DNA from: Escherichia phage MirsaeidiM_Esher1 | Sequence record: PQ438048.1 | DNA length: 64,000 bases | Direction: 5' to 3' (one strand) | Shown: positions 33,749 through 35,473 of the stretch, piece after piece | Layout: each line of letters starts with the position of its first letter | How positions within the stretch are numbered: the stretch's first letter is position 1 | Position numbers and translations under genes: made by a program | Notes under the pieces: model-generated | The model's database searches: none | Told to the model about the DNA's origin: nothing | The model's input: the letters and a program-made list of their open reading frames with translations, nothing else

Positions 33749-34144
33749 ATGTGTGGATATCTTTCAGAAAGTTATTTCAAAGTGACGCATGAGGATTTAG
33801 AAAAAGCACGATTGAAACTGACAGCTATTATTGAATACTCTAATACTGTTGATCACAGATTAAAGACTACTAAAGTATCTGTTCCTTGTTGGTTAGGTTT
33901 ACGGCATAAAATAATGTCTCAACATGACCATGTTGTTCGAGAGATGCATGGTTGGTGTTGGTTTCACGATGTGGCTCTGCATTTTGGTTATATTACAGAA
34001 GAAGAGCATAGATTCTGTGAACTAACATATCGTATTCCAACCCTTCACGATTTAGATTTGTGGAAGAAAGCAAACGAGATTTTTCTTACAGAAAGTGATT
34101 GGCGTAAAGTTATGGCTTGTCTTGAATGGAGGGGTAATGAGTAA
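33749..34144 (+). CDS. hypothetical protein (131 aa)
   Basis: ATG after GGAGG. Confidence 0.6.
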   Translation: MCGYLSESYFKVTHEDLEKARLKLTAIIEYSNTVDHRLKTTKVSVPCWLGLRHKIMSQHDHVVREMHGWCWFHDVALHFGYITEEEHRFCELTYRIPTLHDLDLWKKANEIFLTESDWRKVMACLEWRGNE

Positions 34145-34820
34145 AACAGTTTTGTCTATGTTTGACGGATCTGGGATCATGGTGTTACGTTATGCCGAAG
34201 CAGGTCACAAGTGTTTTTGTGTAAACGCTGATGAAGGGGATCACGGTAAATACGAGGTTAGGATGGAGCACCCAAACATAACCTATGTGAATGCCTGGAT
34301 AGATTCTACATTCAACCCTGAAGATCATGGGATACCTAAACCCGATATTATTTTTGGATTTCCACCTTGCACTATGTTAGCAGGTAGTGGTAGCAAACAC
34401 GAACGCAGCACAGAGGAATTGGATGAAGCTTTAGCTAATATTCGTGTAGTGGAAGCTTTGGGTAACAAATATAATGTTCCTTGGATGATTGAGAACCCAG
34501 TAGGTAAACTTTCAACCTTATGGCGTAAACCCGATTTTTACTTTGATCCTTATGAGTATGGTGGGTATTTGTTTGAAGAGGAAGGAAGCTTTCATCCTAA
34601 AATGCCTACCCGTGATGGGTATACAAAGAAAACTTGTATTTGGCACGGCAATGGTTTTGTTCAACCAGTGAAGAAACCAGTAGATCATATAGGCTGCTTC
34701 TGGGGTTGGAAAAGCTTAGGTGGAGCTAGTGCAAAAACAAAACAACTTAGATCACTAACCGCACGTGGTTTTGCTCGTGCAGTGTTTTTGTCTAACAATC
34801 TTCTAGATAAGGAGAAATAA
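34137..34820 (+). CDS. C5-cytosine methyltransferase-like catalytic-domain protein (short, no recognisable target-recognition domain)
   Basis: Motif I-like LSMFDGSGI, motif IV-like GFPPCT (Pro-Cys nucleophile), motif VI-like MIENPVG; only 227 aa. Confidence 0.5.
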   Translation: MSKTVLSMFDGSGIMVLRYAEAGHKCFCVNADEGDHGKYEVRMEHPNITYVNAWIDSTFNPEDHGIPKPDIIFGFPPCTMLAGSGSKHERSTEELDEALANIRVVEALGNKYNVPWMIENPVGKLSTLWRKPDFYFDPYEYGGYLFEEEGSFHPKMPTRDGYTKKTCIWHGNGFVQPVKKPVDHIGCFWGWKSLGGASAKTKQLRSLTARGFARAVFLSNNLLDKEK

Positions 34821-35473
34821 TGTCAAATTCAAAACCAGTGGTTGCTTATCAAGTAGATCGTAATGATGGTGAAGGAAGTGTTGTTATTTTCAGTACACAC
34901 GGTCTTGAGGCTCGTCGGAAAGGTGCATATCGTTTAGAATGTGAGTTTGAAGACTGCACAAGCCACCGTGTCAAACAATTCGATCAATATGCTGATAAAG
35001 GCTTCGTCCCTATCAAAGCGTTACTGGAAGATGGTTGGTGGGTATATTCTGCTTTTGATTACTCAAAACTGGAGGAGTCAGCTTCGTGCGCCTCCGAGAT
35101 CGAATATGATGATTACTATGACACTCTCTACCTTCCAGAATGGCTTGTCTTTTCCCCTGATGAGAGAAGCGTCTGGAAAACTTGGGAAGAAATGGAGAGA
35201 CATGCGTATAGCATCAATGAAGCCTTAGATCGTAAAGCTTGGTTTATTGAGGCAGTAAAGGCGGCATACCCTCAATTTTCATTCTGTGATTTCACTGGTG
35301 GCCCAGGGTACATTACACATACAGCCTCTTTTGAGTTCCCTGGCTCACGTTATAAAGGTAATGTTTATTGGGATTGGGATGAAAATAAACAACCTTCGGC
35401 TCAAGACTTCCGTTGCTATGTTTGTCAAGGTGATCAAGAAGCCCTTGACAAATACCTTCAAAGTCTGGTATAG
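34820..35473 (+). CDS. hypothetical protein (217 aa), start coupled to MTase-like gene stop
   Basis: TAATG overlap; AAGGAG RBS. Confidence 0.6.
   Translation: MSNSKPVVAYQVDRNDGEGSVVIFSTHGLEARRKGAYRLECEFEDCTSHRVKQFDQYADKGFVPIKALLEDGWWVYSAFDYSKLEESASCASEIEYDDYYDTLYLPEWLVFSPDERSVWKTWEEMERHAYSINEALDRKAWFIEAVKAAYPQFSFCDFTGGPGYITHTASFEFPGSRYKGNVYWDWDENKQPSAQDFRCYVCQGDQEALDKYLQSLV

Follow-up and report, generated by a model that had tools for sequence, protein, structure and literature searches.

A probable compact orphan DNA cytosine-C5 methyltransferase of the phage Dcm-like family in Escherichia phage MirsaeidiM_Esher1

In the 64 000-nucleotide stretch of Escherichia phage MirsaeidiM_Esher1 DNA analyzed here (PQ438048.1; the whole stretch is referred to as the window), an open reading frame (ORF) at positions 34137–34820 of the plus strand encodes a protein of 227 amino acids (aa) that resembles DNA cytosine-C5 methyltransferases and has an experimentally characterized relative. 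This relative is the product of a 711-bp ‘Dcm-like’ gene of phage K42, which is 95.4% identical to KarlJaspers/Bas06 (10.1101/2023.08.16.553469; published as Cell Rep 2024;43:114857, according to PMC12640716). Four K42 escapers of retron Ec86 all carry mutations by which this gene is, or may be, disrupted. When produced alone in Escherichia coli, K42 Dcm raised the level of 5-methylcytosine (5mC) on the multicopy single-stranded DNA (msDNA) of Ec86, as detected by LC-MS (liquid chromatography coupled to mass spectrometry), and triggered the retron; the product on DNA matched the 5mC standard, and no rise of 5mC on the msDNA was seen with the C82A/E128A/K175A/K176A mutant (10.1101/2023.08.16.553469).

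Two better known groups of C5-methyltransferases frame the comparison. The canonical enzymes of the Pfam family PF00145, such as M.HhaI, M.HaeIII, E. coli Dcm and the 329-aa enzyme of phage muut, share with the compact protein the order of the motifs I, Pro-Cys and ENV/ENP as well as the loop that carries the catalytic cysteine, but the compact protein is about 100 residues shorter, and differs in several motifs described below. The catalytic domains of the mammalian DNMT3A and DNMT3B resemble the compact protein in having a very short recognition region, but are only 13–20% identical to it and belong to multidomain, oligomeric, eukaryotic enzymes; this likeness may stem from nothing more than the small size of that region in both groups.

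The window is a Phapecoctavirus genome (phAPEC8-like, Stephanstirmvirinae), and the 2.3 kb around the gene share 99% identity with Klebsiella phage ZCKP1 as well as with dozens of Phapecoctavirus phages of Escherichia. Sequence comparison, a structural model and the analogy with the K42 enzyme make it very probable that ORF 34137–34820 encodes a complete, active, stand-alone (orphan) DNA cytosine-C5 methyltransferase that depends on S-adenosylmethionine (SAM) and belongs to a compact phage ‘Dcm-like’ family, PHROG 757. The KarlJaspers counterpart of K42 Dcm (bas06_0055, 711 bp) is 50% identical to the 227-aa protein over the full length (E 1e-71), so the formation of 5mC by the latter is a well-supported expectation. 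The two proteins belong to the same family and length class (236 vs 227 aa), have identical blocks (FPPCT, ENPVGKLSTLWRKPD, KKTC and RSLT-RGFARAVF), and the KarlJaspers/K42 residues C82, E128, K175 and K176 fall exactly on C78, E119, K164 and K165 of the protein discussed here. Both are also products of stand-alone genes of lytic coliphages, KarlJaspers and K42 being Drexlerviridae siphoviruses and the present phage a Stephanstirmvirinae myovirus.

The family is large and uniform in size. Residues 1–225 of the protein match positions 13–223 of the 247 in the PHROG 757 profile (‘DNA methyltransferase’) at E 1.8e-84. A search of 5.8 billion proteins yields at least 870 homologous clusters, the best 120 of which are all 210–267 aa long, and when 1.84 billion representatives are searched exhaustively with a profile, 1854 representatives at 50% identity are retrieved (E ≤0.001), nearly all of 200–260 aa and matched over their full length. 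By tblastn, the gene is present in 1487 of the 50 697 deposited phage genomes (~3%), and the carriers include Drexlerviridae (T1-like), Vequintavirus, Krischvirus, Dhillonvirus, PVP-SE1-like and P1-like D6 phages; to hundreds of family members, the identity of the 227-aa protein is 50–99%. The preliminary description, made from the same sequence, had called the protein truncated; given that ~220–240 aa is the normal full length of this very large family, which the protein matches end to end, this label is not supported, and by these alignments the protein is a complete member. Its residues of interest are located as follows.

34137–34820, plus strand: predicted compact orphan DNA cytosine-C5 methyltransferase gene, PHROG 757/phage ‘Dcm-like’ family, 227 aa.
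34161–34175, plus strand: motif I variant F9-D-G-S-G13 after strand beta1, the putative SAM-binding loop, aligned to FSGAGG of M.HaeIII.
34368–34370, plus strand: Cys78 codon of motif IV (FPPCT); the residue is the putative catalytic nucleophile, equivalent to C71 of M.HaeIII, C81 of M.HhaI and C82 of KarlJaspers/K42 Dcm.
34491–34499, plus strand: motif VI variant E119-N120-P121 (canonically ENV), the Glu of which, equivalent to K42 E128, is the putative cytosine N3 contact.
34620–34634, plus strand: Y162-T-K-K-T166 at strand beta7, in place of the motif VIII QxRxR, with K164/K165 equivalent to K42 K175/K176.
34650–34718, plus strand: residues 172–194, a short variable segment where the canonical target-recognition domain sits.
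34746–34787, plus strand: L204-RSLTARGFARAVF-217, a conserved C-terminal helix region, motif IX-like (RxLTxRExAR) by eye, with no significant alignment.

Conservation of these residues was counted in an alignment (A2) of 89 diverse family members, down to 30% identity. Cys78 and Glu119 are invariant, as are Pro121 and Tyr162 (89/89 each), and the near-invariant positions include Lys164, Thr166 and Arg205 (88/89 each) and Asn120 (86/89); all seven residues that characterize the family (C78, E119, P121, Y162, K164, T166 and R205) are present in the 227-aa protein. Motif I, which is contained in the string LSMFDGSGI, follows in the family the pattern [FYC]-D-x-[ST]-G: position 9 is F, Y or C, Asp10 is found in 72 and Gly13 in 70 of the 89 sequences. 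Cys78 lies in the context GFPPCT, four residues past the strand 71–74 of the model, and is followed by Thr rather than by the canonical Gln (PPCT vs PCQ). The ENP triplet, in the context MIENPVG and in strand 116–121, is aligned to ENV in the canonical enzyme from phage muut. The three motifs, from motif I to ENP, and the ORF coordinates are thus as they had been described before. The large variable domain that separates motifs VIII and IX in canonical enzymes is absent from the 227-aa protein and from the 89 family members, in agreement with the preliminary description; the segment in its place is 23 residues long here and 20–36 aa (median 24) across the alignment, and is less conserved than its flanks. 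The additional remark that C-terminal motifs could not be seen is not supported: in addition to the conserved motif VIII-like YTKKT, there is a C-terminal RSLT(P/A)RGFARAVF region that by eye resembles motif IX, and in which Ser206, Pro209, Gly211 and Ala215 are conserved in at least 90% of the members.

The unusual motifs might be taken to signify a catalytically dead, methyltransferase-derived DNA- or SAM-binding protein, an explanation that had been suggested earlier and to which the non-canonical FDGSG, PPCT instead of PCQ, ENP instead of ENV, the lack of QxRxR and the Pfam score below the threshold would all be congenial. However, the odd motifs are the consensus of the family, invariant or nearly so in the 89 members; KarlJaspers Dcm has the same PPCT, ENP and KK at the positions numbered in K42; the mutant of K42 Dcm loses the rise in 5mC that is seen with the intact enzyme. 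Given that the catalytic residues do not vary and that 5mC on DNA is increased by K42 Dcm, the KarlJaspers counterpart of which shares 50% identity with the 227-aa protein, an inactive protein is extremely improbable.

The relationship to the structurally characterized C5-methyltransferases is distant. With a single sequence as the phmmer query, residues 5–87 are aligned to residues 3–80 of M.HaeIII, with Cys78 on the catalytic Cys71. In an hhalign comparison of A2 with M.HhaI (a sequence identical to 10mh_A), Cys78 is aligned with C81, within a block of 22 residues around the Pro-Cys pair only and with a negligible probability. The AlphaFold model of the 227-aa protein (predicted local distance difference test (pLDDT) 90, predicted template modeling score (pTM) 0.89) has seven strands in the class-I methyltransferase order; this predicted fold is closest to the catalytic domains of C5-methyltransferases, and in a Foldseek search, the best 50 matches are all DNMT3A/B, with E values from 2.9e-8 (rank 1) to 2.8e-6 (rank 50). 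The M.HaeIII alignment and the fold comparison confirm, at the level of sequence and model, that the motif resemblance is not due to chance. The Pro-Cys of the proposed nucleophile occupies the catalytic-loop position, on C71 of M.HaeIII and C81 of M.HhaI and four residues past strand beta4, so the possibility that the cysteine lies off this loop, which had been singled out as potentially fatal to the C5-methyltransferase assignment, is not borne out and the assignment stands. Because the sequence alignments to solved C5-methyltransferases are insignificant, the basis for the relationship is the fold together with the order of the motifs and the characterized homologue.

Several observations weigh against this assignment. 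The Pfam PF00145 gathering score is not reached (11.6 bits vs the cut-off of 22, over residues 4–92 only), and only one of the 89 family members reaches E<0.01 with this model. No NCBIfam match is found for the 227-aa protein, and the profiles built from A2 and from a second family alignment, A1, detect nothing significant among the Protein Data Bank (PDB) sequences; PADLOC yields only weak N-terminal matches (E 1e-4 to 4e-3), the models hit being Type II and DruM cytosine methylases. The canonical QxRxR of motif VIII is missing: YTKKT, with lysines in place of the arginines, precedes the strand 166–171. Motif X (GNAV) was not found in the protein. Position 30, which is Asp in most members, is Asn in the subfamily of the 227-aa protein, Asn30 being shared by KarlJaspers Dcm, a close counterpart of the active K42 enzyme. 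The K42 data themselves come from over-expression in vivo, with the target site assumed rather than mapped (10.1101/2023.08.16.553469). Finally, in the BASEL study, the Vequintavirinae and their relatives, including the phAPEC8-like Phapecoctavirus cluster, were found to be ‘exceptionally susceptible’ to the tested restriction systems (PMC8594841), so that any protective role of the methyltransferase would be narrow; narrow anti-restriction is its probable role. Taken with the failure to reach the PF00145 gathering score and the lack of QxRxR and of a large recognition domain, the sequence and the model point to a divergent C5-methyltransferase, which would nonetheless function as the canonical ones do.

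It had been considered earlier that such a minimal enzyme could act on nucleotides or RNA. More broadly, the protein might be a C5-pyrimidine-modifying enzyme with another substrate or another transferred group, namely RNA (m5C or m5U), the nucleotide level, or a SAM analog such as carboxy-SAM. A substrate that is structured or single-stranded could be compatible with so small a recognition region, and that of the K42 enzyme is an msDNA hairpin. Nevertheless, such an activity is quite improbable: the best matches by structure are DNA methyltransferases, and DNA is the substrate of the characterized relative, whose product on it matched the 5mC standard. The RNA m5C methyltransferases of the RsmB/NSUN type have a second Cys in motif VI, where the 227-aa protein has ENP, and C5 methylation of nucleotides in phages is performed by thymidylate synthase homologues, which have a different fold. 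The DNA cytosine C5-carboxymethyltransferase CmoX of Synechococcus phage S-B43 (PDB 8yf3; PMC12783734) consists of 333 aa and uses carboxy-SAM, whereas the characterized relative of the compact enzyme makes 5mC.

For the preferred reading, a DNA cytosine-C5 methyltransferase, a mechanism can be sketched by extrapolation from the established C5-methyltransferase mechanism and from the residue conservation described above. The seven-stranded class-I core would bind SAM via two elements, the F-D-G-S-G loop and, where beta2 ends, the Asn30/Asp position, and the target cytosine would be flipped out of the DNA. Cys78 of FPPCT would then attack C6, with Glu119 of ENP contacting N3/N4 and Lys164/Lys165 of YTKKT standing in for the motif VIII arginines, on the base or on the backbone; transfer of the methyl group to C5 would be followed by beta-elimination that frees the enzyme. 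As in DNMT3A/B, the DNA would be read with no large recognition domain, by the ~24-residue loop (172–194) and the C-terminal helices. The phage DNA would be methylated post-replicatively, which would blunt some restriction enzymes, at the cost that defenses sensing 5mC, such as retron Ec86/Eco1, can use this base as a trigger.

The likely recognition loop, segment 172–194, differs between the 227-aa protein and KarlJaspers Dcm, so the target motifs of the two enzymes need not match. The CCWGG target of K42 Dcm is itself an analogy with E. coli Dcm, backed by msDNA mutagenesis only (10.1101/2023.08.16.553469), and the target of the present enzyme may differ from this site. There are 83 CCWGG sites in the window. 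Shuffles that preserve the dinucleotides give an expectation of 61 ± 7, and 83 was not reached in any of 100 such shuffles; thus, CCWGG is mildly over-represented rather than avoided, which is not decisive with regard to specificity. With a loop of ~24 residues that is unlike that of the K42/KarlJaspers enzyme, the recognized motif could be very short or relaxed, or else hairpin or single-stranded DNA could be preferred.

The methyltransferase gene is part of what, judging from the arrangement of genes and signals, is a tightly packed four-gene unit. Its ORF extends from the ATG at 34137 to the TAA at 34818–34820; the GTG at 34095 was considered as an alternative start and rejected in favor of ATG 34137, given that homologues align from residues 2–5 on. 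The other elements of the unit are the following.

32747–32775, plus strand: promoter-like site TTGACA-17-TAAACT, from a consensus scan only, possibly the start of the unit.
32806–33747, plus strand: first gene of the unit, 313 aa, with the Pfam domains DUF7277 (PF23942, E 2.3e-13) and DUF7275 (PF23940, E 7.5e-76).
33749–34144, plus strand: upstream 131-aa gene, PHROG 16551, with the annotated start the same as in phage anhysbys.
34820–35473, plus strand: gene for a 217-aa protein, PHROG 8514, apparently a lineage-specific neighbor and not a methyltransferase subunit.
35489–35513, plus strand: strong terminator-like hairpin of 11 pairs followed by a T-run, closing the unit (consensus scan; visible in the sequence).

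Another terminator-like hairpin (consensus scan) is located at 32724–32741, just before the promoter-like site. The start of the 217-aa ORF (ATG 34820–34822) shares one base with the methyltransferase stop, the previously described TAATG overlap, and is preceded by AGGAG at 34810–34814, 5 nt upstream; the 217-aa gene would be co-transcribed and translationally coupled with the methyltransferase gene. However, the stop of the 131-aa gene and the methyltransferase start also overlap, by 8 nt (ATGAGTAA, 34137–34144), and such coupling is accordingly a property of the whole block, nothing special to the methyltransferase/217-aa pair.

This pair brings to mind M.AquI, a split C5-methyltransferase encoded by two overlapping genes, the second of which bears the C-terminal methyltransferase motifs. 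The resemblance consists in a C5-methyltransferase-like ORF followed by an overlapping ORF; the differences are that here the second ORF has no methyltransferase similarity, the first carries a motif IX-like C-terminus, and relatives of the first work alone. A two-subunit enzyme, in which the 217-aa protein would supply target recognition or the missing C-terminal motifs, could be imagined from the TAATG overlap and the common transcription unit, together with the lack of a large recognition domain in the methyltransferase. The distribution of the genes speaks against it. The 217-aa family comprises 14 clusters in a large protein database and is encoded in 149 phage genomes, mostly Stephanstirmvirinae, compared with more than 870 clusters and 1487 genomes for the methyltransferase, that is, it is about one-tenth as frequent. 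Among 80 IMG/VR loci with a methyltransferase homologue, found with alignment A1, a 217-aa homologue lies within 3 kb in five and is absent from 75; no homologue exists in the KarlJaspers genome, and K42 Dcm works alone. What directly follows the methyltransferase homologues varies widely: at least 25 unrelated groups of genes, helicases and small proteins among them, are found in this downstream position, and many have the same 1-nt or 4-nt overlaps. The 217-aa protein itself has no Pfam, NCBIfam or PADLOC match and no methyltransferase or DNA-binding features.

The sister genus Justusliebigvirus adds evidence on both sides. In phage muut (NC_052657.1), the corresponding slot, flanked by homologues of the 131-aa and 217-aa genes, is taken by a canonical 329-aa PF00145 C5-methyltransferase (149.8 bits, locus positions 1394–2383), which shares only 26% identity with the compact enzyme over 128 N-terminal residues. 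Sequence comparison thus points to an in situ non-orthologous swap of cytosine methyltransferases inside a conserved backbone, which supports the functional equivalence of the compact and canonical enzymes. That the 217-aa gene stays next to a C5-methyltransferase even where this enzyme is a different, canonical one could be counted in favor of a two-subunit arrangement, but the adjacent Justusliebigvirus enzyme is already complete. A weak match (E 0.01) between motifs IX–X of the muut enzyme and a 217-aa homologue from a Pseudomonas phage could be counted likewise. This candidate link, under which the 217-aa protein would carry motifs IX–X, came from tblastn and BLASTP comparisons of the muut C-terminus (E 0.01 and 2e-4 in tiny search spaces) and was rejected as a chance match: hhalign gives a probability of 0.05%, Pfam does not reproduce it, and, of the five strands predicted for the N-terminal domain of the 217-aa protein, four precede residue 50. 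Altogether, a split enzyme is highly improbable, and the earlier proposal that the methyltransferase works with a coupled downstream partner finds no support; the comparisons suggest that the 217-aa gene is a lineage-specific neighbor, and the overlap would reflect tight phage gene packing rather than functional partnership.

The Pseudomonas-phage homologues of the 217-aa protein (26–31% identity) are found in the Bradleyvirinae phages AIIMS-Plu-RaNi (locus positions 2962–3525) and Epa5 (~3001–3477), among primase, pyrophosphohydrolase and ligase genes, and no methyltransferase lies near them in these loci, which likewise speaks against a two-subunit enzyme. They contain a Cys-rich, zinc-finger-like insertion between two domains (weak zf-FLZ match). 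The swap in muut is at most a faint hint of a link between the methyltransferase and its neighbor genes. Nevertheless, the 217-aa gene is kept beside a C5-methyltransferase in two sister genera despite the swap, and so the protein might act on, or read out, cytosine methylation. That either the recognition by the minimal enzyme or this neighbor hides something unusual is, for the two taken together, unlikely.

Some features of the surrounding genes and records deserve mention on their own. The 313-aa gene also adjoins the methyltransferase gene in phage Citrobacter Tr1, also of the Stephanstirmvirinae, and in four taxonomically unassigned IMG/VR loci; in phage muut, no homologue turned up within 2.5 kb. 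At 35445–35513 of the plus strand, a consensus scan reveals a promoter followed by a hairpin. The promoter, sigma-70-like and near-consensus (TTGACA-18-TATAGT, with TG and 11 of 12 positions matching), falls within the final codons of the 217-aa gene; it is aimed into the hairpin 35489–35513, a few bases past the expected transcript start, which is odd, and the next gene starts at 35532. Two genes downstream, at 36005–36805 of the plus strand, there is a phage Sir2-family gene (Pfam SIR2, E 1.4e-20; PHROG 2162, E 1.1e-96), the synteny of which is shared by anhysbys and muut, both Stephanstirmvirinae phages, and by five IMG/VR loci.

The preliminary description also pointed to a second, N6-adenine-type methyltransferase-like gene, and such a gene does exist. 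The 169-aa ORF 27216–27725 (plus strand), which contains IIITNPPF, matches PHROG 799 (‘DNA methyltransferase’) at E 2.8e-59, over profile positions 206–373 of 458 only, and gives a weak match to the Pfam EcoRI_methylase model (14.7 bits); its start overlaps the 144-aa ORF 26798–27232. From its sequence, the product looks like a very small methyltransferase of the N6-adenine/N4 type or a fragment of one. Among the database records consulted, MG065650 (Campylobacter phage B15), MG065680 (A113), MG065639 (A150) and OP562383 (Acinetobacter phage ABPW7) are, over the region studied here, ~99% identical or closely related to genomes of E. coli Phapecoctavirus, Justusliebigvirus or Drexlerviridae phages, so that their host labels look doubtful.

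The compact orphan phage methyltransferase is already known: a protein identical to the one described here is present in RefSeq phage records under the name ‘DNA methyltransferase’ or ‘Dcm’, and a relative has been characterized. As it stands, the finding is therefore ordinary and matters little. The usual label in the records of the carrier phages is Dcm or DNA methyltransferase; in several Phapecoctavirus records, the same gene is annotated as ‘DNA methyltransferase’, ‘Dcm’ or ‘putative site-specific DNA methylase’, and in others as ‘hypothetical protein’. The PHROG 757 family escapes PF00145 and NCBIfam, so pipelines that rely on those libraries leave it ‘hypothetical’ in many records. Because the K42 relative triggers retron Ec86/Eco1, Phapecoctavirus phages may be sensed by this retron as well, which would bear on the choice of therapeutic phages and hosts.

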